Below, in pieces: positions 4,833 to 58,251 of a stretch of 64,000 nucleotides of DNA. The stretch is from Parcubacteria group bacterium Gr01-1014_30. GTDB lineage: Bacteria > Patescibacteriota > Minisyncoccia > Minisyncoccales > 2-12-FULL-40-12. Where the stretch lies: assembly GCA_007376185.1 (NCBI GenBank), contig VMFS01000003.1:25983-89982 (forward strand), read 5' to 3'. A program made the position numbers and the translations under genes. Position 1 is the first letter of the stretch; every line of letters begins with the position of its first letter. The notes under the pieces were generated by a model, which saw only the letters and a list, made by a program, of their open reading frames with translations, searched no databases and was not told where the DNA came from.

Positions 4833-5559
4833 TAATAAAATTGGGATACTAGGTTATGGAGAAGTGGGGCGGGCGATTGCAAAGTTTTATAAAAATCCAA
4901 AAATCAAAGATCTAAATAGAAATGATGATTTGCAGGGAGTTGAGATTTTGCACATATGTATTCCCTGGAGCAAGAGGTTTGTTGAGATTGTTAAAAAAGA
5001 AATCAAAAAAATAAAGCCGCGCCTGACGATAATCCACTCCACGGTTGCGCCGGGGACCACTAAGAAAATCGGTGGCAGGATAGTTCACAGTCCGGTAAGA
5101 GGAGTGCACCCCAACTTATACGAGGGAATCAAGACATTCGTTAAATACATCGGAGCCGACAGCAAGAAAGCAGGTCTTGTGGCAAAGAAACACTTTGAAA
5201 GTTTGGGAATTAAAGCAAAAGTATTCTATCCTTCAGCAACAGCGGAACTTGGAAAGTTACTTGACACAACTTATTACGGCTTGGTTATTGCCTGGTATGG
5301 AGAAATGAAAAAATTGTGCGATAAATACGGCGTTAATTTTGACAACGCCGTAACAGATTTTAATAAAACCTACAACGAAGGGTATGCGAAATTGGGCAGA
5401 AAGAACGTGATAAGGCCAGTTCTTTTTCCGCCAAAAGGCGGAATAAAAGGACATTGTGTTGTGCAAAATACTGAGATCCTCAAAAAATATTTCAATAGCA
5501 AGGCATTAGATTTAATTTTAGAATACAGGCCCAACAAACAACATGGAACAAAAAACTGA
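4816..5559 (+). CDS. NAD(P)-binding Rossmann-fold protein, function unknown
   Basis: N-terminal IGILGYGEVGRAIAKFY (GxGxxG). No further family assignment is possible by eye. Confidence 0.35.
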   Translation: MSKKPNNKIGILGYGEVGRAIAKFYKNPKIKDLNRNDDLQGVEILHICIPWSKRFVEIVKKEIKKIKPRLTIIHSTVAPGTTKKIGGRIVHSPVRGVHPNLYEGIKTFVKYIGADSKKAGLVAKKHFESLGIKAKVFYPSATAELGKLLDTTYYGLVIAWYGEMKKLCDKYGVNFDNAVTDFNKTYNEGYAKLGRKNVIRPVLFPPKGGIKGHCVVQNTEILKKYFNSKALDLILEYRPNKQHGTKN

Positions 5560-12579: not shown

Positions 12580-12590
12580 GTTTGATGGTA

Positions 12591-12778
12591 GCTCGGCGGT
12601 AAAGTTCCCGTTCGCCGTCCCTCAAAAATCGATCGTCAGCGAAGATGAAGAAGAGATTTATCTCTTCTGACTCCCAGCGAGATTTTGGGGTCTGCGCTCT
12701 CGCGCCGCCATTCCGCCCTCAAGCGGAAACCTTGCTGGCGGCGCTCCGAGAGCCGTCCGGAAACTTCACCGCCTCGCT
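12591..12778. mobile_element. MITE-like GC-rich element with ~20-nt imperfect terminal inverted repeats
   Basis: Ends are gctcggcggtaaagttcccg and ccggaaacttcaccgcctcgc (about 16/20 complementary). Central hairpin agaagaga-ttta-tctcttct. Fills the 12580-12784 intergenic gap. Confidence 0.55.
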
Positions 12779-12784
12779 TAAAAT

Positions 12785-13546
12785 ATGCCTAAAGTATCCA
12801 TCATAGTTAGAACAAAGAACGAAGAAAAGTGGATAGGCGAGTGTTTGAGAGCGGTTTTCGGCCAGAAGTTTAAGGGGTTCGCTGAAACTTCGTCTCCTTT
12901 CACTCCCGCAGGGGCGAGAAGAGAACGAAGTTCTCTGCGAGCGCCTCTCTCTGTTTCACAGAGTTCGGCTTTTGAAGTTGTTGTTGTTGATAACGGGAGC
13001 TTTGACAAAACGTTGGATATCGCGAAAAAATTTCCGGTGAAAATCGTTCATCACAAAGGTAAAGCTTGGTTTCCCGGAAGGTCAATTAACGCCGGAATCA
13101 GAAATTCGTCCGGAAAGTACATTGCTTTGCTTTCGGGACACTGCGTTCCTGTAAACAATAGTTGGCTTAGCGATTTAGTGAGGGAAGTAAAAGCTCCAAA
13201 AATTGCTGGAGTCTACGGCAGGCAACTCCCTTTGCCAGAAAGTTCACCCTTGGACAAGCAGGATTTATTGATGTTTTTCGGCAAAGACCCATTAATTCAA
13301 ACAAAAGGACACTTCTTTTATTTTGACAACGCAAATTGCGTTATCAAAAGGTCGGTTTGGGAGAAAATTCCCTTTGACGCAAAAATTAGGCACAAAGAAA
13401 ACATTATTTGGGGCAGAAAAGTTGTTCAAAGAGGATACAAAATTGTTTACACTCCCAAAGCAAAAGTTTATCACTGGCACGGAATAAATCACGCAGGAAA
13501 TATAAAAAGAGCCAAAGAAGTGGTTAAAGTGCTGGAAAAATTATGA
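12785..13546 (+). CDS. Family 2 glycosyltransferase carrying an in-frame palindromic insert
   Basis: VSIIVRTKNEEKWIGECLRAVFGQ...EVVVVDNGSFDKT is a GT2 N-terminus. A 30-aa foreign segment interrupts it. Confidence 0.75.
   Translation: MPKVSIIVRTKNEEKWIGECLRAVFGQKFKGFAETSSPFTPAGARRERSSLRAPLSVSQSSAFEVVVVDNGSFDKTLDIAKKFPVKIVHHKGKAWFPGRSINAGIRNSSGKYIALLSGHCVPVNNSWLSDLVREVKAPKIAGVYGRQLPLPESSPLDKQDLLMFFGKDPLIQTKGHFFYFDNANCVIKRSVWEKIPFDAKIRHKENIIWGRKVVQRGYKIVYTPKAKVYHWHGINHAGNIKRAKEVVKVLEKL
12881..12970 (+). repeat. In-frame GC-rich palindromic module (90 nt, 30 codons)
   Basis: Encodes AETSSPFTPAGARRERSSLRAPLSVSQSSA between KFKGF and EVVVVDNGS. Arms gaaacttcgtctc / gagaacgaagttctc. Hairpin ctctg-tttca-cagag. 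Confidence 0.7.
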
Positions 13547-20635: not shown

Positions 20636-21396
20636 GTAGAAAATACCCGAAATTTATATATTTCCTATATAACTTCATAAACCCGATAATTAATCCTCAT
20701 CGGTTAGTAAAATTTATACCGGAATATCTTAATTTTTTTAAGAACTTGATTAAATATTTTAGAATGGGAGGGGCAGAAAAATTTAGTTTTTTTGATTTAA
20801 CCCCTTCTCTTTATGAGAGAACGCCAAGTTCGGGATTTGACCGCCATTATTTTTACCAAGACATCTGGGCTGCAAGAAGGATAATTAAAAGTCAGGTCAA
20901 ACGTCATATTGACGTTGGCTCTAGAGTGGATTTTGTGGGTTTTTTATCTGCGGTTTGCAAAGTAACTTTTGTTGACATTCGTCCTTTAGAAGTAAATTTA
21001 AAAAATTTTGAATCAGTGAAAGGCAATATTATATCTTTGCCTTTCAAAGATAATTCTATTCCATCACTTTCTTGCCTGCATGTAGCCGAACACATTGGAC
21101 TTGGCAGGTATGGAGACAAACTAGACCCCAAAGGGACAGAGAGGGCTTGCCGAGAACTTACCAGGGTTTTGGCGAAGGGAGGCAATTTATATTTTTCTTT
21201 GCCAGTTGGCAAACCAAAATTGTGTTTCAACGCGCACAGGATTCACTCGCCTGAACAAATTCTTCAGTATTTTAGCGGCTTAAAATTGGTTGAACTTTCA
21301 GGAGTTAATGACAAAGGCATATTCAGAGAAAAGATTGCCGTTGACCGGCTGAAAAATGAAAATTATGCCTGCGGCCTATTTTGGTTTAAAAAATGA
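20632..21396 (+). CDS. DUF268-like SAM-dependent methyltransferase
   Basis: LSCLHVAEHIGLGRYGDKLDPKGTERACRELTRVLAKGGNLYFSLPVG matches the DUF268 methyltransferase pattern. Confidence 0.55.
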   Translation: MSRKYPKFIYFLYNFINPIINPHRLVKFIPEYLNFFKNLIKYFRMGGAEKFSFFDLTPSLYERTPSSGFDRHYFYQDIWAARRIIKSQVKRHIDVGSRVDFVGFLSAVCKVTFVDIRPLEVNLKNFESVKGNIISLPFKDNSIPSLSCLHVAEHIGLGRYGDKLDPKGTERACRELTRVLAKGGNLYFSLPVGKPKLCFNAHRIHSPEQILQYFSGLKLVELSGVNDKGIFREKIAVDRLKNENYACGLFWFKK

Positions 21397-22883
21397 AGCA
21401 TCAGCTCAATGTTTTCAAAACGGAGTTAAGGGAAAGAGGTCTATTTTATGCTTTGAAAAAGGCAGTGCTTTATTTATTGCGGCCAATTACCGATTTAATG
21501 AAGACAAGCACATTTTTGGTAAACTTGCGGTATGGAGTTTTGCCTAATCTGTTATCAAAAATCACGTTTCATCAAGATAATCTGCTACTAAAACTCCCGC
21601 AAACCGATTTAGTTCGCGCCGTGCGGAACTTTTGGTATGGAAGTATTCTCGACAGGTTTGTTCTTGAAGGAGAGGAAATTAAAAAAGAAGAAATTTTTAC
21701 TTACGGAGGACCTAACCCCGAATTTAGTTGCCCAATTTGCCAAAAGGCAGAGTGGGTGTCAAGAATCAGACAAGAAAATTTATTTTTAGATCATTCTTGT
21801 CCAAGTTCTGAAAAATGCAGGAAATTGTGCGAAAAGCAAGGCAATGATTTATGGACTCACTTTCACCAGAATTTTGATTTTTCTTTGGGTTGCTCCGCTG
21901 ACTTGCCGGCTCCCAAAGGCGTTTACGTCCTTTTTGGGAAACTGGATATGTTTCACGCTCTTCGTTTGGAACCAATGGAGAGAATTTTTCATCGCCAATT
22001 TGCTTTTGCTTGTCAGCTTGATATAGCAGAAGGGCCTTTTGGCATTGACTGGAAAAAATATGATTTTATGTTTATGTATCTTCCGGGAGCCGTGCCCAAA
22101 TTTAAACGTCCACCAATTCCAGTAATTCTTTTCGCTCACGATTTTTGGCGAGAACCCAAAGCCAGTCAGTGGGTATTGGACTGGTTGGAGCCAGAGGTCT
22201 TTTTAACTACTTACCCAACTCAATTTAAAGAAAATTATCGTTTTCCAAAAAATACCAAAGTTGTATTTCACCCCATGTTTACGTCAAATTTCTTTACCAG
22301 ACCCAATCTTTCTCAAAAATCAATTGATTTGCTTTCAGTGGGGAACACCAAGGGGCCTCTTTATCAAGGAAGGAGAAACTTGAATATGCAATTGCAAAAA
22401 TTTAAAGAACAATACCCCTCATATAAACTTGAATTTTCGCACATTGTGGGCACTCTTAAGCCGAATGAGCAAGAGGGACTTGAATACACCGATTCTCAAG
22501 GCAACCAAATAAGATATTTAAATAAATGGTCAGAATACTTGGGAACTGCAAAATATGTTATTTTCGGCAAAATGAAATATCCTATTTTGGTCGGTAAATA
22601 TTACGAAACCTTGGGGTCTGGCGCCATACCCATTTTCCCTGAAGTGCCCGACTTGAAACTTTTGGGAGTAAAACCCTTTGAACACTATATTCCCTTAGCT
22701 GAAATTGAAGGAAATTCAGAAAGATTAAAATATTTTTTAGATAATTACGAAAAATTCAAGTATATTGGCAAAAATGCGGTAAAATGGTATAAAGATAATT
22801 CAGATAAGATGCTTTTTGCCGGTTTTGAGGGCTCAATTAGAGAAGTTACCAATTATAAATTTCCAAAAAGATTAGTTCGCTGA
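21393..22883 (+). CDS. Hypothetical protein with C-terminal GT-B-like (CgeB-type) region; its stop codon is supplied by a repeat module
   Basis: C-terminal KYYETLGSGAIPIFPEVPDL...FEHYIPL. The TGA at 22881-22883 lies inside gttcgctgaaacttcgtttcctctc. Confidence 0.4.
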   Translation: MKHQLNVFKTELRERGLFYALKKAVLYLLRPITDLMKTSTFLVNLRYGVLPNLLSKITFHQDNLLLKLPQTDLVRAVRNFWYGSILDRFVLEGEEIKKEEIFTYGGPNPEFSCPICQKAEWVSRIRQENLFLDHSCPSSEKCRKLCEKQGNDLWTHFHQNFDFSLGCSADLPAPKGVYVLFGKLDMFHALRLEPMERIFHRQFAFACQLDIAEGPFGIDWKKYDFMFMYLPGAVPKFKRPPIPVILFAHDFWREPKASQWVLDWLEPEVFLTTYPTQFKENYRFPKNTKVVFHPMFTSNFFTRPNLSQKSIDLLSVGNTKGPLYQGRRNLNMQLQKFKEQYPSYKLEFSHIVGTLKPNEQEGLEYTDSQGNQIRYLNKWSEYLGTAKYVIFGKMKYPILVGKYYETLGSGAIPIFPEVPDLKLLGVKPFEHYIPLAEIEGNSERLKYFLDNYEKFKYIGKNAVKWYKDNSDKMLFAGFEGSIREVTNYKFPKRLVR

Positions 22884-22921
22884 AACTTCGTTTCCTCTCA
22901 CGTTTAGTTTCGCTTAGCAAA
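22875..22921 (+). repeat. Copy of the GTTCGCTGAAACTTCGTYTCCT module at a gene end
   Basis: gttcgctgaaacttcgtttcctctc is nearly identical to 12877-12901, which is read through in frame there. Confidence 0.7.
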
Positions 22922-22930
22922 ACTCAACTT

Positions 22931-23860
22931 ATGAATACAAATAAAAAAATCCTTGTTACTGGGGTTTTGGGAACCATTGGCATGCCGCTTTGGGAAGAGC
23001 TTAGAAAAAGAGGATACCAGGTTTTTGGCTGTGACCTCCGTCATTATCATGACCCCGAGTATTTGAGATGCGATGTAAGTGAGTATCGGCAGCTGGACAG
23101 AATTTTCAGCGAGCATAAATTTGATTATGTTTACCATATGGCTGCTGAATTCGGCAGAAAAGGCGGTGAAGACTTTTATGAGTCCTTGTGGAAGACAAAT
23201 GCCGTTGGCACGAAAAACATACTAAGGGCGCAAGAGAAATACAAATTCAGGTTGATTTATCCGAGCAGTTCAGAGGTTTACGGCACCGCCTATTCAGGAG
23301 TTATGACCGAAGACGTGCCGCAAAAGGTTGCTGTTCGCTTGGGCAACGATTACGGCATGTCAAAGTGGGTCAATGAAATGCAGATTATGAATTCCATGGA
23401 AAAGTTTGGCACGGAAACAGTAAGAGTTCGCTTTTCCAATGTTTACGGACCCGGAGAATATTACAGCGATTACCGCAGCGTTATCTGTATTTTTATCTAC
23501 AGAACTCTGCACAATTTGCCTTATACCGTTTATAGTAACGACAAAAGGGCATTTCTTTACATAGATGACGCGGTGCGCACGTTCGCCAATATATGTGAAA
23601 GATTCAAATCAGGAGAAGTTTACAACATCAGCAACAGGGATTTGGTAGATATGAAGCAGGTTTCAGACATAATTATCAAAATACTTGGCAAAGATGACCG
23701 GCTTATTGAGTACAAAGAGATAGACGCTACGGCCACTTTGGTTAAAGACCTTGATAACTCAAAGGCCTTGCGCGATTTGGACCACAAAAAAACGATTTCT
23801 TTGGAAGAAGGATTGGACCAAACCATAGAATGGCAGAAAAAAGTTTATGGAATTAGTTGA
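22931..23860 (+). CDS. SDR sugar epimerase/dehydratase
   Basis: ILVTGVLGTIGMPL. SSSEVYG. YGMSKWVNE (YxxxK). Confidence 0.7.
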   Translation: MNTNKKILVTGVLGTIGMPLWEELRKRGYQVFGCDLRHYHDPEYLRCDVSEYRQLDRIFSEHKFDYVYHMAAEFGRKGGEDFYESLWKTNAVGTKNILRAQEKYKFRLIYPSSSEVYGTAYSGVMTEDVPQKVAVRLGNDYGMSKWVNEMQIMNSMEKFGTETVRVRFSNVYGPGEYYSDYRSVICIFIYRTLHNLPYTVYSNDKRAFLYIDDAVRTFANICERFKSGEVYNISNRDLVDMKQVSDIIIKILGKDDRLIEYKEIDATATLVKDLDNSKALRDLDHKKTISLEEGLDQTIEWQKKVYGIS

Positions 23861-25106: not shown

Positions 25107-25153
25107 CTTCGAAATAGTCAGAAGAGATAAATCTCTTCCTTATTTTCGCTAAC
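25106..25153 (-). repeat. Copy of the AGCGAAGATAAGGAAGAGATTTATCTCTTC hairpin core (reverse orientation)
   Basis: gcttcgaaatagtcagaagagataaatctcttccttattttcgctaac is the reverse complement of the cores at 12635-12681 and 44851-44900. Confidence 0.7.
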
Positions 25154-28377: not shown

Positions 28378-29265
28378 ATGTTGACCATTTTTACAACAAC
28401 AAAGCCATCAATAGGAGAAATTGGCTTCATTCAGAGAAATGCGATTAATAGCTGGCGGTTGTTGAGGCCCAAGCCACAGATACTTTTATTTGACAACGAA
28501 AAGGGCGCAAAAAAACTGGCAAAAGACCTTAAAATAACTCACGTTCCGGAGGTTCGAAAAAACGAATACGGCACGCCGCTGGTTAGAGATATTTTTGAGA
28601 AGGCTCAAAGTTTGGCCAAGAACAGGATTTTGGCGTATGTTAACGCCGACATTATTTTAATGCAGGATTTTATGGAGGCGATTTCAAGGATAAAGTTTGA
28701 TAAATTTGTTCTTGTCGGCCAGAGAAGGGACATTGACATCAAAAAGAATATAAGATTTCAGAAAGGCTGGCGGGAAAAGTTACGCAAGATTGTTGCCAAA
28801 GAAAGCAAGCTTCACGGGCCTTCAGGCATAGATTATTTTGTTTTCCCAAAAGGTTTTTTTTCAAACATACCTAATTTTGCTTTGGGGAGAACTCTTTGGG
28901 ACAACTGGTTTTTGTACAAAGCTTGGATTTCGGGCGCTACTTTGATAGACGCGACCGAAGTTATAACGGCCATTCACCAAAATCACAAAGTTCACCTGCC
29001 CCGAGGGCATAAAAAAAACGTCTGGAAGGGACCTGAAGCTAAAATGAATCAAACGTTAGCCGGCGGGCTATCTCGCGCTTTCACAATCAGGGACTGCTCC
29101 AAACTTTTGACAAAAGAAGGTTTAGAAAATCCCAAGGTCGATTTTTACAGAATCTTTTCCGCGCCTTTCCGTTACTACGACAAGCTGCCAGCTTTAAAGC
29201 CGTTTTTGTTCTTTGGCTGGCTAGTTTTCTTAATATGGCGAAAAATAAAGATAATCAAAACTTAA
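28378..29265 (+). CDS. Hypothetical, possible GT-A-like glycosyltransferase with C-terminal TM helix
   Basis: TIFTTTKPSIGEIGFIQRNAINSW...AYVNADIIL pattern. C-terminal hydrophobic LFFGWLVFLIW. Confidence 0.35.
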   Translation: MLTIFTTTKPSIGEIGFIQRNAINSWRLLRPKPQILLFDNEKGAKKLAKDLKITHVPEVRKNEYGTPLVRDIFEKAQSLAKNRILAYVNADIILMQDFMEAISRIKFDKFVLVGQRRDIDIKKNIRFQKGWREKLRKIVAKESKLHGPSGIDYFVFPKGFFSNIPNFALGRTLWDNWFLYKAWISGATLIDATEVITAIHQNHKVHLPRGHKKNVWKGPEAKMNQTLAGGLSRAFTIRDCSKLLTKEGLENPKVDFYRIFSAPFRYYDKLPALKPFLFFGWLVFLIWRKIKIIKT

Positions 29266-30926
29266 TCAGGATAGGTTTGGCTCAAATAAACTGCACTGTC
29301 GGCGACTTGGAAGGAAATTTCCAAAAAATTAAAGCGTGGATAAAAAAAGCCGAGGATCTTAACCTTGACGTTATCGCTTTTCCTGAGCTTGCAATAACCG
29401 GTTACCCGCCAGAAGACCTTTTGCTCAAACCCAGATTTATCCAAGACAACTTGAAAAAAATAAGAGAGCTAGCACCTTTTGTTAAAAAAACAGCGGCCAT
29501 TGTGGGATTTGTTGATAAAGAAGGAAGTCACATATATAACTCCGCCGCCTTAATCAAAGGAGGAAAAATAGTTGGAGTTTATCGTAAAATGTGTTTGCCA
29601 AACTACGGCGTATTTGACGAAAAGCGTTATTTTCTGCCGGGGCAGAAGCTTTTGGTTTTCAAAATAGGGAAAATTACAGCTGGAATAAATATCTGTGAGG
29701 ACATCTGGGAAGAATCTGGCCCCACAAGGGCGCTGGGCAAAAGGGGGACAAAAATAGTGTTTACCATCAATGGGTCCCCATACCACCAAGGTAAAATTAG
29801 ACAAAGAGAAGAAATAGTTAAAGATCAAGCTAAAGCAAACAAAATTGCAGTAGTTTACATCAATTTGGTAGGTGGCCAAGATGAGTTGGTTTTTGACGGT
29901 CAGAGCATGGTAGTGGATAGTAAGGGTTTAGTGGTCTCGAGAGCCAAAGCGTTTGTGGAAGAGTTGCTGGTGGTGGAAATAGATGCAACGGGTTCTAAAT
30001 TAAAATTTAAAAGTTCAAAATTGGAATCTCTTTTTTTGGAAGAAGAAGTATATAAAGCGTTATTGCTCGGCTTGGGAGATTATGTGAGGAAAAACGGTTT
30101 CAAAAAAGTGGTAGTTGGGCTTTCTGGCGGGATTGATTCATCTTTGGTAGCAACTTTGGCTGTTGACGCTTTGGGCAAAGATAACGTCACTGGAGTAGTT
30201 ATGCCTTCAAGGTTTTCTTCTCTTTTATCAAAAGAAGACGCAGAAAGTTTAGCTAAAAATTTGAGAATTAAATTAATGATAGTTTCTATTGAACCAATTT
30301 TCAAAGCTTACTTGGAAACCTTAAATCCACAAATTCAAGATTTGGAGCAGGATATAGCTATGGAGAACATTCAAGCTAGGATCCGCGGCAACATTTTAAT
30401 GGCTTTTTCCAATAAATTTAACTGGCTGGTTTTGACCACCGGGAACAAATCAGAGATGAGTGTGGGTTATGCCACCCTTTATGGAGATATGGCTGGAGGT
30501 TTCGCGCCCATCAAAGATATTCCCAAAACTTTGGTCTACAAGCTTGCAAGATACAGAAACTCGCTTGCCGAGCCCGTGACGGCGAGGCGGGAGAGGTTAG
30601 CAGAACATTCAGCGACCTCAAGAGTCATACCGGAAAGTGTGCTAGTAAAGGAACCATCGGCCGAGCTGAGGTTAAACCAAAAAGACAGAGATTCTCTGCC
30701 GCCTTACGAAATCTTAGACCCTATCTTGAAGTTATACGTTGAACAGGATTTAGGCGTTGATCGGATTTTGAAGTTGGGTTTTGAGAAAGAGGTTGTTTCA
30801 AAGGTTGCAGGAATGGTTGACAAATCAGAATATAAGAGAAGGCAGTCGCCTCCTGGCATCAAAATCACTCCCAAGGCTTTTGGCAAAGACCGAAGAGTGC
30901 CAATTACCAACAAGTATGGAAAATAA
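29235..30926 (+). CDS. nadE: Glutamine-dependent NAD+ synthetase carrying an in-frame insert
   Basis: N-terminal CN-hydrolase domain (IGLAQINCTVGD, FPELAITGYPPEDL). PP-loop VVGLSGGIDSS. KEPSAEL. Confidence 0.85.
   Translation: MAKNKDNQNLIRIGLAQINCTVGDLEGNFQKIKAWIKKAEDLNLDVIAFPELAITGYPPEDLLLKPRFIQDNLKKIRELAPFVKKTAAIVGFVDKEGSHIYNSAALIKGGKIVGVYRKMCLPNYGVFDEKRYFLPGQKLLVFKIGKITAGINICEDIWEESGPTRALGKRGTKIVFTINGSPYHQGKIRQREEIVKDQAKANKIAVVYINLVGGQDELVFDGQSMVVDSKGLVVSRAKAFVEELLVVEIDATGSKLKFKSSKLESLFLEEEVYKALLLGLGDYVRKNGFKKVVVGLSGGIDSSLVATLAVDALGKDNVTGVVMPSRFSSLLSKEDAESLAKNLRIKLMIVSIEPIFKAYLETLNPQIQDLEQDIAMENIQARIRGNILMAFSNKFNWLVLTTGNKSEMSVGYATLYGDMAGGFAPIKDIPKTLVYKLARYRNSLAEPVTARRERLAEHSATSRVIPESVLVKEPSAELRLNQKDRDSLPPYEILDPILKLYVEQDLGVDRILKLGFEKEVVSKVAGMVDKSEYKRRQSPPGIKITPKAFGKDRRVPITNKYGK
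30561..30620 (+). repeat. In-frame GC-rich palindromic module (~60 nt)
   Basis: Encodes SLAEPVTARRERLAEHSATS between LARYRN and RVIPESV. Stem cgcttgccg / cggcgaggcg. Boundaries are approximate. Confidence 0.5.
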
Positions 30927-38782: not shown

Positions 38783-39509
38783 ATACTATGACAAGAAAGT
38801 TGGCGACTTTCAAAGGTTTAAGCCTTCTTTTTTAAGCAGTTATAAATTTCTTTATCAGCTGCTGAAAAACAGGTGCAGAGATAAAGTTGTTTTAGATTTT
38901 GGCTGCGGCGCAGGATTGCACAGCGTACAATTAGCGAAAATGGGAGCAAAAAAAGTTATAGGCATTGATTTGTCGGAGGCTTCTTTGAAGGCGGCAAGAC
39001 TAAGACATGAAATGCAAGATACGAAACACAATATACAATTTATCAACATGGATTGCGAGAACCTGGATTTTGCGGATAGTTATTTTGATGTTATCTTTGA
39101 TGGCGGAACTTTTTCCTCAATTGATTTGGAAACAACTTGGCCGGAACTGATCAGGGTTTTAAAACCGGATGGAGTTTTAATAGGCATTGAAACGTTTGGG
39201 CATAATCCCTTGACCAACTTGAAGCGGAAATTTAACAAACTGACCGGCAATAGAACTGCGTGGGCGGCAAAGCATATTTTTAGAATGCCAGATTTGGCCA
39301 AAGCCAAAGTATATTTCGGCAGCACTGAAGCTTATTACTTTCACTTAGTTTCCTGGCTGGCATTTCCTTTTTTGCGTCTTCCCGGAGGAAAGTTACTGTT
39401 AAAGATACTTGAACTTACTGATAGAATACTCTTGGAGCTGCCTTTTTTGAGAAAATACTCGTTTAAGGTTGTGTTCATTTTTAGCGAACCGAAAAAGAGC
39501 AATAAATGA
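38754..39509 (+). CDS. Class I SAM-dependent methyltransferase (type 11)
   Basis: VLDFGCGAGLHS. VIFDGGTFSS. LKPDGVLIGIE. Confidence 0.7.
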   Translation: MEERKQKEIEYYDKKVGDFQRFKPSFLSSYKFLYQLLKNRCRDKVVLDFGCGAGLHSVQLAKMGAKKVIGIDLSEASLKAARLRHEMQDTKHNIQFINMDCENLDFADSYFDVIFDGGTFSSIDLETTWPELIRVLKPDGVLIGIETFGHNPLTNLKRKFNKLTGNRTAWAAKHIFRMPDLAKAKVYFGSTEAYYFHLVSWLAFPFLRLPGGKLLLKILELTDRILLELPFLRKYSFKVVFIFSEPKKSNK

Positions 39510-39543
39510 TTAAGCCTTTTGTTTCAGTAATAATTCCTTGTAG

Positions 39544-39605
39544 GCTCGCTGAGACTTCGTCTCCTCTCGCACACTGCGCTCGCTTGCGTGAGCGAAGATA
39601 AGAAC
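39544..39605 (+). repeat. 62-nt palindromic module flanked by a ~43-47-bp duplication of the GT2 gene start
   Basis: gctcgctgagacttcgtctcctctcgcacactgcgctcgcttgcgtgagcgaagataagaac. Flanks 39515-39543 and 39624-39652 are a 29-nt direct repeat with 1 mismatch. Confidence 0.75.
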
Positions 39606-39614
39606 AATAAATAA

Positions 39615-40598
39615 ATGACGACCCCTTTTGTTTCAATAATAATTCCTTGTAGAAACGAGGAGAGATATATAAGTAAGTGTTTGGAAACGATTTTGGCTCA
39701 GGATTACCCCAAAGACAAAATGGAAATTTTAGTTGTTGACGGTATGTCTGAAGATAAAACCAGAGAGATAATTAAAAATTGGAAATTAAAAATTGGAAAT
39801 TTAAGATTATTGGATAATCCCAAAAAAATTGCGCCTTCAGCTCTCAATATAGGCGTAAAAAACAGCACAGGGGAAATAATAATGAGAATGGACGCTCATG
39901 CCCGCTACGAACGAGATTATCTTTCAAAATGCGTGAAGTACTTGAAAGAATACGGCGCTGACAATATCGGAGGAACGATGAAAACCCTGCCCCAAAAAAG
40001 TACCATTGTCGCCAAAGCAATCGCGCTGTCTTTGTCTCACATATTCGGAGCCGCTTCCCGATTTAGAATAGGGGAAAGTCAACCGGTCGCTGAACTTCGT
40101 TCATCTCCTACCCTTCGCTCCGCTCGGGTCAAAGAGGTAGACACTGTTTTTGGCGGATGCTACAAAAGAGAGGTTTTTGACAGAATAGGGTTTTTTAACG
40201 AAAACTTAATTCGTTCCCAGGATTTGGAGTTTAATTTGCGCTTGAAAAGAGCCGGCGGCAAAATAATCTTACATCCTGATATTGTCAGCTATTATTATCC
40301 CAAGCCGACTCTGGGCGAATTTTTCTGGCACAACTTTCAAGACGGCATTTGGTCAATCCTGCCATTGAAGTTTGTCAAAGTTCCTTTTAAGTTAAGGCAT
40401 TATATTCCCTTGATTTTTGTTTTGACTCTGCCCTTGAGCTTTTGGCCGTATATTTTGCTTTCTCTGTTTTTTTCTCTGCAGATTGCCGCTCGAGAGAAAG
40501 ATTTAAGGTTGTTTTTCGCAATGCCCTTGGCTTTTGCGACAAGACATTTTGGTTACGGTTTGGGTTCAATTTGGGGATTAGTTAAGTTAATTTTATGA
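39615..40598 (+). CDS. Family 2 glycosyltransferase carrying an in-frame insert and a 14-nt tandem duplication
   Basis: VSIIIPCRNEERYISKCLETILAQDYP...ILVVDGMSEDKT...RMDAHA. C-terminal TM helices. Confidence 0.75.
   Translation: MTTPFVSIIIPCRNEERYISKCLETILAQDYPKDKMEILVVDGMSEDKTREIIKNWKLKIGNLRLLDNPKKIAPSALNIGVKNSTGEIIMRMDAHARYERDYLSKCVKYLKEYGADNIGGTMKTLPQKSTIVAKAIALSLSHIFGAASRFRIGESQPVAELRSSPTLRSARVKEVDTVFGGCYKREVFDRIGFFNENLIRSQDLEFNLRLKRAGGKIILHPDIVSYYYPKPTLGEFFWHNFQDGIWSILPLKFVKVPFKLRHYIPLIFVLTLPLSFWPYILLSLFFSLQIAAREKDLRLFFAMPLAFATRHFGYGLGSIWGLVKLIL
39770..39806 (+). repeat. 14-nt (2 x 7) tandem repeat aaattaaaaattgg x ~2.5 inside a CDS
   Basis: Read directly. Encodes IIKNWKLKIGNLRLL. Confidence 0.7.
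40083..40130 (+). repeat. In-frame GC-rich module (~48 nt) related to the GCTGAAACTTCG family
   Basis: Encodes PVAELRSSPTLRSARV between RIGESQ and KEVDTVFGGCY. The gctgaacttcgttcatctcct core resembles gctgaaacttcgtctcct. Confidence 0.55.
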
Positions 40599-44719: not shown

Positions 44720-45091
44720 GGGGACAGGACTCAAACTAGAGTCACCTTGAGAAGCGAAAAAAATGAGATGATTTCAAGGCGCAACGACGCAGGCGCACTA
44801 GCGAAAGCGGATGCGTCAAGGAGGAGCAACGCAGAAATCAGCCATCGAGCGTTAGCGAAGATAAGGAAGAGATTTATCTCTTCCGACATTTTTTCGCTTC
44901 CCCCAAGGGCGGGCAAATTAGGACAATCTTCTTCGTTGTTCCGATTCCTTCGGAATCGAGAATCCTCGACAGCTTCGCTGTCGGGACTCGTCGTTAGCGT
45001 ATCTCGTTCCGCAGATACGCTCAGCTCCTCGCGCCTATAATCTTGCCCTAATTCGCTCCGCTCAAGTGATTCTATCTTGAGTCCTATCCCC
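44720..45091. mobile_element. 372-bp non-coding MITE-like element with ~31-nt terminal inverted repeats
   Basis: Left end ggggacaggactcaaactagagtcaccttgag. Right end ctcaagtgattctatcttgagtcctatcccc. The interior is a chain of short hairpins (gattccttcggaatc, cgacagcttcgctgtcg, agcgtatctcgttccgcagatacgct) plus the gaagagatttatctcttc core. Confidence 0.6.
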
Positions 45092-46344: not shown

Positions 46345-46417
46345 ACCCCGTAATACAACTTCCAGCACGCTTCGCGTGCAAAATCGCTGAAAGCGACTGG
46401 AAGATGATATACGGGGT
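46345..46417 (+). repeat. Y-shaped structured repeat, copy 1 (candidate ncRNA / REP-like element)
   Basis: accccgta-atacaa-cttccag-[cacgc ttc gcgtg]-caaaa-[tcgct gaa agcga]-ctggaag-atgata-tacggggt. Confidence 0.7.
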
Positions 46418-46425
46418 AAATAAAC

Positions 46426-55439: not shown

Positions 55440-55511
55440 ACCCCGTAATACAACTTTCGGCGCGCTAAAGCGCAAAATCGCCGAAGGCGACCGAAAGATG
55501 ATATACGAGGT
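55440..55511 (+). repeat. Y-shaped structured repeat, copy 2
   Basis: accccgta-atacaa-ctttcgg-[gcgc...gcgc]-aaaa-[tcgcc gaa ggcga]-ccgaaag-atgata-tacgaggt. Confidence 0.7.
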
Positions 55512-55527
55512 ATTGACTTAAATTTTG

Positions 55528-55886: not shown

Positions 55887-57125
55887 ATGAAAAAGTATTT
55901 TTTACTTTTGTTGATTTTAGCCATATTTTTGGTTCTTTATTTTTGGCCTTTTCCTGGAGTTCAAAAGCCAGCAGAGCCAGCCTTGGAGACGGAAGTTACG
56001 GACCAAATAACCGTTGATGAAGTTGAAGAACCAGATGAAGGTGAAGAGTCGGAAGGTCTTGAGGTGGTCGCCCGAGAACTGCAAATTCCTTGGGAAATAG
56101 CTTTCCTGCCTGCGCCTGACCGCCTGTCTGCGCAGGCAGGCGCAGGCAGGCAGGAAGGTTTGCCTGATGGCACTTTACTGGCAACCGAAAGGCCGGGAAA
56201 CTTGGCAGTTATTCGTGACGGAAAGGTCGTTAGTCGCATTGCGGTTTCCGGCGTTTACCACAGCGGCGAAGGGGGCTTGCTAGGCATGGCTTTGCATCCA
56301 GATTTCAGGGAGAACAAATTTTTGTATCTCTATTTCACATACAGGGAAGGCAGCCAAACCAAAAACAAAGTGGAGAGATATATTTTTGACGGCGACATTT
56401 TGTCAGACAGAAAAATTATTATTGACAACATTCCGGGAGCTGCAAATCACAACGGCGGCAGAATCGCTTTCGGGCCAGACAGCTACTTATATATAACTAC
56501 TGGAGACGCGCAGGCGCCTAATTTGGCGCAGAACATCAATTCGCTTGCCGGAAAGGTTTTGCGTTTAAGAGACGATGGTTCCATTCCCGAGGACAACCCC
56601 TTTGCTTCGGCCGGCTCAGCACAAGCTGACGCGGTTTGGTCTTTTGGCTATCGCAATCCGCAAGGCCTGGCGTGGGACCAAGCAGGGAGGTTATGGAGCA
56701 CAGAGCACGGCCCTTCTTCTTTGGTGTTGCCGAATTGCTGCCAGGACGAGGTTAATTTGATTGAGAAAGGAGCTAACTACGGCTGGCCAGATAGTGTTGG
56801 AGGTAAAGTAAAAGCAGGAACTATGGCGTCAAAACTGCATTCAGGCGGCGACACTTGGGCGCCATCTGGCGCGGCATACTATAACGGCTCTTTGTTTTTT
56901 GGCGGCCTAAGAGGCCAGAGTTTATATGAGGTGGTTTTACAGGGAGAGGAAGTTGTTGAATTAAAGAGACACTTTAAAGGAGAGTTCGGGCGGATCCGGG
57001 GGGTTTCTCTGGAGCCTGACGGTTTTTTGTACATTATCACTTCCAACAAAGACGGCAGAGGCGTTCCCCAAGCCGACGACGACAAGATAATTCGACTGAA
57101 CCCCAAACTCATCTTTAGTTATTAA
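55887..57125 (+). CDS. PQQ-dependent soluble sugar (glucose/sorbosone) dehydrogenase-like beta-propeller, membrane anchored, with an in-frame insert
   Basis: LGMALHPDF...YLYFTY, NHNGGRIAFGPDSYLYITTGD, GYRNPQGLAWD, GANYGWP. N-terminal TM helix plus an acidic linker. Confidence 0.75.
   Translation: MKKYFLLLLILAIFLVLYFWPFPGVQKPAEPALETEVTDQITVDEVEEPDEGEESEGLEVVARELQIPWEIAFLPAPDRLSAQAGAGRQEGLPDGTLLATERPGNLAVIRDGKVVSRIAVSGVYHSGEGGLLGMALHPDFRENKFLYLYFTYREGSQTKNKVERYIFDGDILSDRKIIIDNIPGAANHNGGRIAFGPDSYLYITTGDAQAPNLAQNINSLAGKVLRLRDDGSIPEDNPFASAGSAQADAVWSFGYRNPQGLAWDQAGRLWSTEHGPSSLVLPNCCQDEVNLIEKGANYGWPDSVGGKVKAGTMASKLHSGGDTWAPSGAAYYNGSLFFGGLRGQSLYEVVLQGEEVVELKRHFKGEFGRIRGVSLEPDGFLYIITSNKDGRGVPQADDDKIIRLNPKLIFSY
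56109..56162 (+). repeat. In-frame GC-rich palindromic module (54 nt, 18 codons)
   Basis: Encodes PAPDRLSAQAGAGRQEGL between IAFL and PDGTLLATER. Arms cctgcctgcgc / gcgcaggcagg. Confidence 0.75.
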
Positions 57126-57592: not shown

Positions 57593-58177
57593 ATGGTTTT
57601 AACCGAGTCGGTTCAAAAATTAAAGAAGGGAGACAAGGCGCCGGATTTTTCTTTGAAAGGCGTTGACGACAAAATATACTCTTTGAAGGACTTTGAAGGC
57701 CTGCCTGCCCCCCTGCGCGGTCAGGCGCAGGCAGGCAAACAAGGCCTTTTGGTTATATTTATGTGTAACCACTGCCCTTACGTGAGAGCGAAACTGCCGG
57801 TCATTGCCGAGCTTTACAAAAAGTGGGGTACTAGGATTTCTTTTTGCGGCATCAACAGCAATGACTCTGGATACGAAGGCGAAGGCATGGACAATATGAA
57901 GGTTTTTGCCAAAGAGAGAGCAATTGCTTTTCCTTACTTGTTTGACACACTTCAAGATGTTGCCAAGGCCTATGGAGCAACTTGTACTCCCGACCCGTTT
58001 TTATTCAATAAAAATTCTGAACTGGTTTTCCACGGACGAATTGACGACGCCACGGGCCCGGGCGAGACGGCCAAAGAGAAGACCATGGACGAGAATATCT
58101 CAAAAATGCTTTCAGGCCAAGAAATTTCTGACGAGTTCAAACCGTCAATGGGATGCTCCATTAAGTGGACCCCGTAA
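57593..58177 (+). CDS. Thioredoxin-fold (redoxin-like) protein with an in-frame insert; its stop codon lies inside a repeat
   Basis: KAPDFSLKGVDDKIYSLKDFEG...LLVIFMCNHCPYV (CxxC). The TAA at 58175-58177 lies within ccccgTAAtac of Y-repeat copy 3. Confidence 0.65.
   Translation: MVLTESVQKLKKGDKAPDFSLKGVDDKIYSLKDFEGLPAPLRGQAQAGKQGLLVIFMCNHCPYVRAKLPVIAELYKKWGTRISFCGINSNDSGYEGEGMDNMKVFAKERAIAFPYLFDTLQDVAKAYGATCTPDPFLFNKNSELVFHGRIDDATGPGETAKEKTMDENISKMLSGQEISDEFKPSMGCSIKWTP
57701..57745 (-). repeat. In-frame palindromic module (45 nt, 15 codons), same family as 56109-56162 but in opposite orientation
   Basis: The reverse complement tgcctgcctgcgcctgaccgcgcag matches tcctgcctgcgcctgaccgcctgtctgcgcag of the other copy. 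Encodes LPAPLRGQAQAGKQG. Confidence 0.7.
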
Positions 58178-58248
58178 TACAACTTTCGGTGTGTTCTTGA
58201 AAAGAACACAATTATCGCCGCAGGCGACCGAAAGATGATATACGGGGT
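58169..58248 (+). repeat. Y-shaped structured repeat, copy 3
   Basis: accccgta-atacaa-ctttcgg-[tgtgttctt gaaa agaacaca]-attat-[tcgcc gca ggcga]-ccgaaag-atgata-tacggggt. It exactly fills the gap between two convergent genes. Confidence 0.7.
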
Positions 58249-58251
58249 GGA

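Follow-up and report, generated by a model that had tools for sequence, protein, structure and literature searches.

The subject of this analysis is a 64,000-nucleotide stretch of DNA from Parcubacteria group bacterium Gr01-1014_30 (contig VMFS01000003.1, positions 25,983 to 89,982; hereafter the window), which encodes a family 2 glycosyltransferase, GT2a, whose gene carries a GC-rich, self-folding insert close to its 5' end. The inserted segment is likely to belong to a family of short GC-rich repeats, each composed of two hairpins, that are dispersed over the AT-rich genomes of Parcubacteria (Patescibacteria, a group that also goes by the name of candidate phyla radiation, CPR). As far as the searchable literature shows, the family has not been described previously: searches of open-access text for palindromic elements of CPR or Patescibacteria, REPIN, RAYT, MITE (miniature inverted-repeat transposable element) and intragenic repeats returned no relevant paper. 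This agrees with the sequence-only reading that first pointed to the segment, which knew of no description for this kind of genome.

The insert in the glycosyltransferase gene

GT2a and the parts of its insert are arranged as follows; L-numbers denote the related loci that were used in the comparisons.

12785..13546, plus strand: host gene GT2a, a GT2 glycosyltransferase with GT-A fold, 253 amino acids (ORF, Pfam, synteny, AlphaFold)
12877..12969, plus strand: composite inserted element, 93 nt (31 codons), with the in-frame peptide (G)FAETSSPFTPAGARRERSSLRAPLSVSQSSA; absent from L002, L003 and L004, present as a 54-nt version in L001
12877..12903, plus strand: 5' end of the element and hairpin-1 region, GTTCGCTGAAACTTCGTCTCCTTTCAC; the same 27-mer occurs at 22875 and 39544
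12901..12942, minus strand: inverted, incomplete copy of the element, nested in the composite, whose reverse complement GCTCGCAGAGAACTTCGTTCTCTTCTCGCCCCT equals the left half of the family unit (covariance model, 25.1 bits, E 1.6e-7)
12943..12969, plus strand: hairpin 2 and 3' end, GCC-TCT-CTCTG-TTTCA-CAGAG-TTC-GGC; 100% identical to the L001 copy

The gene reads ...KFKGFAETSSPF... across the insert junction. The segment was initially described as an in-frame, GC-rich and self-folding insertion, and this description holds: its GC content is 0.556 compared with 0.42 for the window, and its predicted RNA fold has a dG of -47.5 kcal/mol, corresponding to a z-score of -4.07 relative to shuffled sequence. 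When folded as DNA, either strand reaches a z-score of about -3.4. The pairings that had been named are present in the predicted fold. The Pfam match to PF00535 (E 5e-21) begins only at residue 60, which corresponds to profile position 25, and the N-terminal motif of the enzyme is therefore split. As expected for ordinary GT2 enzymes, the residues on either side of the insert are contiguous in 12 of 14 aligned homologs.

The four nearest homologs of GT2a (71-75% identical; L001-L004) are encoded in syntenic loci. In L002, L003 and L004 (71-74% identical), the protein of 222-224 amino acids reads ...KFKD|FE... with nothing between the flanking residues, while the L001 ortholog (240 amino acids) carries an insert of 18 codons (54 nt) at the same point. 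On the DNA level, the empty site is AAGGA|TTTTGAAG and the filled site of L001 is AGAGA, followed by the insert TTTCGCTGAGACTTCGTCTCATCTCACGCCTCTCTCTGTTTCACAGAGTTCGGC and then by TTTTGAAG. Precise empty sites are thus found in syntenic orthologs, and the boundaries of the GT2a insert have a slack of up to 3 nt within a T-run. In comparison with the empty orthologs, the insert measures 93 nt (31 codons); the original estimate of 90 nt and 30 codons arose because a single Phe codon had been counted on both sides. The strings GTTCGCT and GTTCGGCT, which had been noted as near-direct repeats bordering the segment, do exist; however, they represent the two ends of the element and not a target-site duplication, since the empty sites lack them.

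The window site consists of the L001-type sequence and 39 additional central bases, which are accounted for by a partial inverted copy nested inside the first one (reverse complement GCTCGCAGAGAACTTCGTTCTCTTCTCGCCCCT). In this nested copy, two 1-nt insertions that compensate each other extend hairpin 1 to GAGAAC-GAA-GTTCTC. The long hairpin that was noticed in the sequence-only reading arises by pairing of the forward half with the inverted one. Inverted doublets resembling the window composite (12877-12942) were also found in L007, L092 and L147. The order of events suggested by these comparisons is that the 54-nt unit in GT2a predates the split of the window lineage and the L001 lineage, and that the window lineage would then have gained 39 nt in the form of a partial inverted element copy nested 3' of hairpin 1. 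The resulting 93-nt composite is predicted to fold as one long hairpin and the original hairpin 2.

The public record for GT2a is 'glycosyltransferase group 2 [Parcubacteria group bacterium Gr01-1014_30]', encoded on a contig of 180,739 bp, and the gene lies in a conserved sugar gene cluster with the order DAHP-synthase-like, GT2, cytidylyltransferase. An AlphaFold model of GT2a, based on an alignment of 15 sequences, has a mean predicted local distance difference test (pLDDT) score of 84.4. Residues 33-60, which are located between the helix 17-25 and the strand 63-69, form the sole stretch with a pLDDT below 50, and the remainder of the model can be superposed on GT-A enzymes, for instance SpsA, TarS and TarP. 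Homolog alignment and structural model, which had been proposed as checks, thus agree that the segment is a low-confidence loop in a confident GT-A fold, and the insert is predicted to be a disordered surface loop in an otherwise normal enzyme. In the public protein P0001, the start of GT2a is placed 20 codons downstream of 12785, resulting in a protein of 233 amino acids. This start removes the N-terminal beta-strand VSIIVRTKNEE, which is conserved in all homologs; the ATG at 12785 is the better start.

The repeat family and its distribution

The canonical unit of the family comprises 54 nt (18 codons) and has the sequence GG TCGC TGAGAC-TTC-GTCTCA TCTCCC GCC TC GCCCCGC-TTC-GCGGGGC TC GGY. 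It consists of a conserved hairpin 1 (TGAGAC-TTC-GTCTCA), the linker TCTCCC and a hairpin 2 with a covarying stem, and 42 of 51 copies have a length of exactly 54 nt. The two-hairpin structure is supported by the alignment of copies, in which 87% of the cells are paired compared with 28-41% in slid controls, and compensatory changes occur at nine of the ten pairs of hairpin 2. Divergent copies, which were detected using a covariance model, covary in hairpin 1 as well (TGAAGGC/GCCTTCA, AGAGGAC/GTCCTCT, TGAAGC/GCTTCA). Among the copies of the family, the loops are conserved while the stems vary. At the ends of the element, TCGCTGAG and the reverse complement TTGCCGAG make up no more than an imperfect inverted pair of 8 nt. 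The host loci have a median GC content of 0.36, and that of the element is about 0.6.

The 5' 23-mer of the GT2a insert matches the window three times with at most three mismatches, and no match is expected by chance; its recurrence is therefore no accident. The covariance model, which was run with filters off to list the window copies, finds six copies in the window and further, more divergent ones in other loci. Apart from the two parts of the GT2a composite, the window contains:

22875..22932, plus strand: complete copy of the family unit (56 bits) in an intergenic position; the ORF 21393-22883 ends at its TGA
39544..39603, plus strand: family copy, preceded by a duplicate of 13 codons from the 5' end of the next GT2 gene; the arrangement is kept in L054
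40085..40132, plus strand: shortened copy, in frame in a second GT2 gene (GT2b, 39615-40598), peptide PVAELRSSPTLRSAR
30563..30617, minus strand: degenerate copy, antisense and in frame in the NAD+ synthase gene (NadE, 29235-30926), peptide AEPVTARRERLAEHSAT

The copies in GT2b and NadE also have empty counterparts. The L054 ortholog of GT2b (76% identical) lacks 45 nt, and 51 nt (17 amino acids) of NadE are missing from all eight closest homologs. Compared with the DNA of the empty NadE sites of L178 and L179, the insert extends exactly from GG to CTCGGC, with no duplication. The first 13 codons of GT2b are duplicated upstream of the gene (39507-39654; identity 81% across 54 nt), and the element separates the two copies. 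A short ORF, MIKPFVSVIIPCRLAETSSPLAHCARLRERR*, results from this, and the same arrangement is kept in L054 (reverse strand, around 4866-4960). The duplicated 5' end looks like the scar of a recombination or gene replacement event at the element.

Outside the window, an 18-mer scan of species-representative genomes yielded 53 matches, which is close to the chance expectation for that word. Approximately 25 of these matches are in metagenome-assembled genomes (MAGs) of Patescibacteria, and all of them share a further consensus of 35-40 nt. Matches outside the CPR, for instance in Bradyrhizobium and Vibrio, were not accepted as family members, because they lack the extended consensus and their number is what chance would produce in 596 Gb. 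At least 120 metagenome stretches contain an exact 22-mer of the family; further copies occur both in the window and in many related genomes, as the sequence-only reading had proposed to check. Viral contigs searched with a degenerate 22-mer gave no match, and hence no sign of a phage vehicle.

Four loci of DATKUR01 (L007, L011, L032 and L041; GC 0.37-0.41) are labelled as Candidatus Humimicrobiaceae of the Actinomycetota. They were not taken as evidence for spread beyond the CPR, since locus L011 is 82-88% identical and syntenic to a locus of the MAG Parcubacteria bacterium DG_74_1 (L012). The taxonomic label or the binning of DATKUR01 is probably wrong.

No known structured RNA family matches the element. 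Rfam 15 has no gathering-level match in the window, and the element and a canonical copy only give noise (E up to 10, all E above 3); the window contains no tRNA or tmRNA genes. A hammerhead-like core was considered and rejected, since CUGAGAC does not fit the consensus CUGANGA, in agreement with the Rfam result.

Reading frames and translation

The copies were grouped by the similarity of their flanks, resulting in 61 independent sites, 52 of which (around 85%) are located in ORFs of at least 100 amino acids. All of these copies are free of stop codons in the host frame. The unit itself is stop-free in four of its six frames, which are used very unequally:

sense frame (AETSSHL), VAETSSHLPPRPASRGS: 37 copies
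antisense frame (DETKSQR), PSPAKRGEAGDETKSQR: 13 copies
antisense frame (RREMRRSLS), RAPRSGARREMRRSLSD: 2 copies
sense frame (SLRLRL), SLRLRLISRLAPLRGAR: 0 copies

The favoured peptides AETSSHL and DETKSQR are hydrophilic (grand average of hydropathy -0.8 and -2.0, respectively) with a net charge of about +1, while the peptides of the avoided stop-free frames have a charge of about +4. The peptides of the two used frames are probably disordered. The hosts of the element are housekeeping proteins, among them ClpB, GlmS, GatB, topoisomerase I (TopA), peptidyl-tRNA hydrolase (Pth), TatD and a sigma factor. A concatenated peptide query of 42 amino acids retrieved no candidate host protein from a word index.

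Element hosts in L151, L152 and L131 hold other in-frame peptides of GC-rich appearance, which recur between unrelated proteins; one of them, DYNPPTT..., is found in a TatD-like and in an Mfd-like protein. On the sequence level, this suggests that further families of in-frame inserts exist in these genomes.

Insertion and proposed mobility

The presence or absence of the element differs among relatives at three window sites, GT2a, GT2b and NadE. The units enter DNA precisely, without target-site duplication and in either orientation, and mostly within genes. A target-site duplication was sought at the three pairs of filled and empty sites; there is none at NadE, and GT2a is ambiguous by at most 3 nt within the T-run. 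At GT2b, a GTCAA repeat was considered as a target duplication and rejected, since it is incompatible with the length difference of 45 nt. A sequence logo of the flanks shows a G at position -2 in 55 of 61 copies, a position that belongs to the element itself. Otherwise, the flanks show only a weak pattern, with a G at +5 (38/42) and an A at +6 (39/42), T-rich positions +3 and +4, and R/A at -4/-3. The GA at +5/+6 would reflect a target preference, since it is already present in the empty GT2a and NadE sites; at GT2b, the GA is found two positions further on. Taken together, the flanks suggest a weak site preference of the form RA^NNNNGA.

The repeat might have spread as a non-autonomous element, whose hairpins in single-stranded DNA would be recognised by a trans-acting enzyme. 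The best guess for such an enzyme is one of the HUH/Y1 type, as for elements derived from IS200/IS605 or for REP/RAYT, because insertion leaves the target unduplicated and the hairpins vary in their stems but keep their loops. On its bottom strand, the element has C-GAA-G loops, a sequence known from the d(GCGAAGC) type of DNA mini-hairpin, which is unusually stable.

Conservation in place and alternative explanations

Several points weigh against the reading of the repeat as a mobile element that is translated and merely tolerated by its hosts. One of them is its conservation in place. At orthologous sites, which form 14 clusters, identities were calculated for 30 nt of the element, none of which had served for retrieval, and for 420 nt of the flanks; the medians are 97% and 74%, respectively, and the element is the better conserved part in 13 of these clusters (sign test, p 0.0009). 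This is not what a purely selfish, merely tolerated element predicts. If the loop were disordered and its DNA junk, it should drift, and pure junk does not explain this difference. The sequence-only reading had compared the segment with selfish palindromic elements of Rickettsia, and whereas the comparison of behaviour is borne out, the term selfish is not established, since copies at orthologous sites are more conserved than the coding sequence around them. Furthermore, the retrieval of copies relied on an exact core word, by which the apparent invariance of the core is partly built in. Nor was a transposase partner found: 0.95 Mb of flanking sequence revealed no recurrent ORF family outside housekeeping functions, those of the 20 largest clusters of ORFs of at least 110 amino acids that could be identified are housekeeping host genes, none of the 20 looks like a transposase, and a tblastn search with IS608 TnpA, a weak test with an approximate query, gave nothing below E=3. 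Since no transposase was found around the copies, the mechanism of mobility outlined above can only be put forward as a proposal. In addition, frame and length statistics are what suggests that the element is decoded as an extra, tolerated surface loop, the argument being that splicing out or bypass would give no reason for the observed frame and length rules.

This leaves selection on the nucleic acid in place, or protection of the element by some other process. A possible, though doubtful, alternative is therefore that the element is a nucleic-acid signal kept by purifying selection at the level of the host, which happens to be in frame, rather than selfish DNA. It could possibly act as a recognition site in single-stranded DNA for proteins involved in recombination, uptake or replication, or as an mRNA structure affecting stability, processing or the pace of translation. 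It is just as tentative that the near-neutral in-frame peptide would be the mere price of carrying a double hairpin with C-TTC-G / C-GAA-G loops.

In addition to the excess conservation of the element over its coding flanks, this explanation is favoured by a comparison of the window with L001. The GT2 genes are 73-79% identical on the DNA level and only 58% identical at third codon positions, whereas 51 of 55 nt of the shared element are identical, including all of the right-hand 28 nt. The variants of hairpin 2 are specific to each site and nevertheless preserved; homogenisation between copies, for instance by gene conversion, is thus no explanation for the conservation. The covarying stems with their conserved loops, and the compensating 1-nt indels that preserve both hairpin and reading frame, point in the same direction. 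The same holds true for several pairs of loci in which a near-identical and a diverged flank meet at the element. In the pairs L040/L123, L058/L088, L079/L110 and L039/L156, one flank of the element is 88-100% identical and the other one 49-76%. This one-sided divergence may be due to recombination at the repeat or to assembly chimeras formed at the repeat, and in the latter case the mosaic flanks would not speak for a signal. On the other hand, the element is found in sense as well as in antisense direction within its host genes (37:15), and this speaks against a single role at the mRNA level. Its density is modest with about six copies per 64 kb, several copies are degenerate (30563, 40085), and close relatives do well with an empty site at GT2a, GT2b and NadE. 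No binding protein or function is known for the element.

The remaining explanations fare much worse than that of a dispersed repeat family. It is very unlikely that the element never reaches the protein, being either removed as a tiny intron-like sequence or skipped by a translational bypass ('hop'), leaving a normal GT2 enzyme. A stably folded, GC-rich insert in the AT-rich coding sequence of essential genes would be in line with this idea, and the GC-rich byp elements in mitochondria of Magnusiomyces bear a superficial resemblance to the element; gene 60 of phage T4 is another case of bypass. However, an insert that is removed or bypassed would be free in its frame, stop codons and length, whereas all 52 intragenic copies are stop-free, 50 of them use just two frames and 42 of 51 comprise exactly 18 codons; nor does any known ribozyme or intron model in Rfam match.

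An ordinary, lineage-specific surface loop of GT2, grown by local duplication or slippage and unrelated to any repeat family, has next to no probability left. The insert does lie in a loop that tolerates variation in length, and the L001 ortholog possesses a part of it, but the idea is refuted by the same nucleotides at unrelated loci of the window and, in both orientations, in unrelated proteins of many genomes. Orthologs from other lineages lack a homologous loop, and conservation is seen at the level of the nucleotides and not of the peptide. The possibility that the insert arose from an error of assembly or sequencing, for example through a chimeric join or an adapter-like sequence, can practically be dismissed: short repeats can misjoin metagenome assemblies and some pairs have mosaic flanks, but the same site-specific insert is present in independent assemblies (NCBI MAG, ENA ERZ27245926, JGI, Logan), copies differ by compensatory substitutions and frames are preserved.

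Other repeats in the window and in related loci

A GC-rich block of 205 nt (12580-12784; GC up to 0.68) is located between the DAHP-synthase-like gene and GT2a. It is missing in L001 and L003, in which the DAHP-synthase-like gene and the GT2 gene overlap. L002 (3665-3804) and L004 (6108-6232) carry a different structured, GC-rich block of around 140 nt at the same place, which is found again with 80% identity in an unrelated locus (L167:671-779). It seems that such elements accumulate at the intergenic site upstream of GT2a.

A second repeat family, AGCGAAGATAAGGAAGAGATTTATCTCTTC, with the hairpin AGAAGAGAT-TT-ATCTCTTCT, has three copies in the window, where none are expected: 12638-12667(+), 25121-25150(-) and 44854-44883(+). 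It is also found in many metagenome loci of Parcubacteria, including tandem arrays of four units spaced around 47 nt apart (L126:4060-4240, L152:2577-2757). Another family of around 70 nt (ACCCCGTAATACAAC...GATGATATACGGGGTA) is present in three copies at 46345-46418, 55440-55512 and 58169-58249, and a pair of GC-rich GCCTGC/GCAGGC palindromes flanks ORFs at a distance of 1.6 kb (56102-56152 and 57699-57738).

Implications

The genomes of CPR bacteria or Patescibacteria have the reputation of being streamlined and of containing little mobile DNA. The family described here adds a structured repeat to essential genes of many Parcubacteria, including those encoding ClpB, GlmS, GatB, TopA, NAD synthase and glycosyltransferases, which follows strict frame rules and is conserved beyond its hosts. 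It accounts for unexplained insertions and split Pfam matches in CPR proteins and can serve as a sequence marker for the clade; such repeats may also break or misjoin metagenome assemblies. Following Rickettsia, it would be the second independent case from which to learn how proteins absorb selfish or imposed sequence. In view of its conservation in place, one may ask if the element has been recruited as a signal, and this is the part most worth following. If it does act as a signal, it would stand for a novel class of genomic signals that are 'coding-embedded' and occur in the smallest bacterial genomes.

Comparison with known systems

With regard to its insertion, the element shares hairpins and the absence of target duplication with elements derived from IS200/IS605, although the flank word is only weak in the present case. 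Repetitive extragenic palindromes (REPs) and the REPINs mobilised by RAYT, which are likewise short and GC-rich imperfect palindromes whose loop and foot sequences are conserved and whose stems vary, also lack target-site duplications and can persist at orthologous positions for long times. The inverted doublets of the window composite, L007, L092 and L147 resemble REPINs. However, REPs are extragenic by definition, whereas the elements of Parcubacteria are mostly intragenic and in frame (around 85%); moreover, no RAYT/Y1 gene was found near the copies (0.95 Mb of flanks), and they do not possess a 5' tetranucleotide of the GTAG type. Precise, duplication-free insertion by a short preferred word would be most like that of the single-strand 'peel and paste' elements, namely the derivatives of IS200/IS605 and REP/RAYT.

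Typical bacterial MITEs have a length of 100-400 bp, terminal inverted repeats and direct target repeats of 2-11 nt (PMC10969869, PMC5896051). Elements such as Correia, ERIC, BOX and QMITE1/2 of Coxiella are, like the present one, small, non-autonomous, structured and sometimes overlapping with or fused to ORFs (PMC10969869, PMC5896051). In contrast, the three comparisons of filled and empty sites in Parcubacteria revealed no duplication, the ends of the element form no more than the imperfect 8-nt pair, and no parent insertion sequence was found in the 0.95 Mb of flanks. PARCELs (PMC2996958) are dyad-symmetric coding sequences that can be read on either strand and spread among microbes with small genomes, and in these respects they are similar to the element. 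They differ in being motifs of 25 residues that are arrayed in tandem and belong to membrane-targeted ORFs without a known function, whereas the units of Parcubacteria are single, scattered inserts in housekeeping enzymes. PARCELs (PMC2996958) and the QMITEs of Coxiella (PMC5896051) thus share only general traits with the element. Unlike translational bypass elements (gene 60 of T4, mitochondrial byps), the copies in Parcubacteria are stop-free in the host frame and mostly 18 codons long.

The closest parallel is provided by the Rickettsia palindromic elements (RPEs; Ogata et al. 2000), ten families of around 100-150 bp that are found only in Rickettsia (review PMC10969869). RPEs are also dispersed palindromic repeats of a small, AT-rich genome, and they are inserted in frame in unrelated metabolic and housekeeping genes and read through as an extra peptide, at positions that are compatible with the protein fold and with insert-free orthologs in existence (PMC10969869). 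The unit of Parcubacteria differs by its length of 54 nt, its distinct two-hairpin architecture and its host in the Patescibacteria, features by which it is set apart from RPEs; furthermore, around 85% of its copies are intragenic, compared with roughly half of the RPEs. The element behaves like an RPE, but would constitute a separate family in a different phylum.

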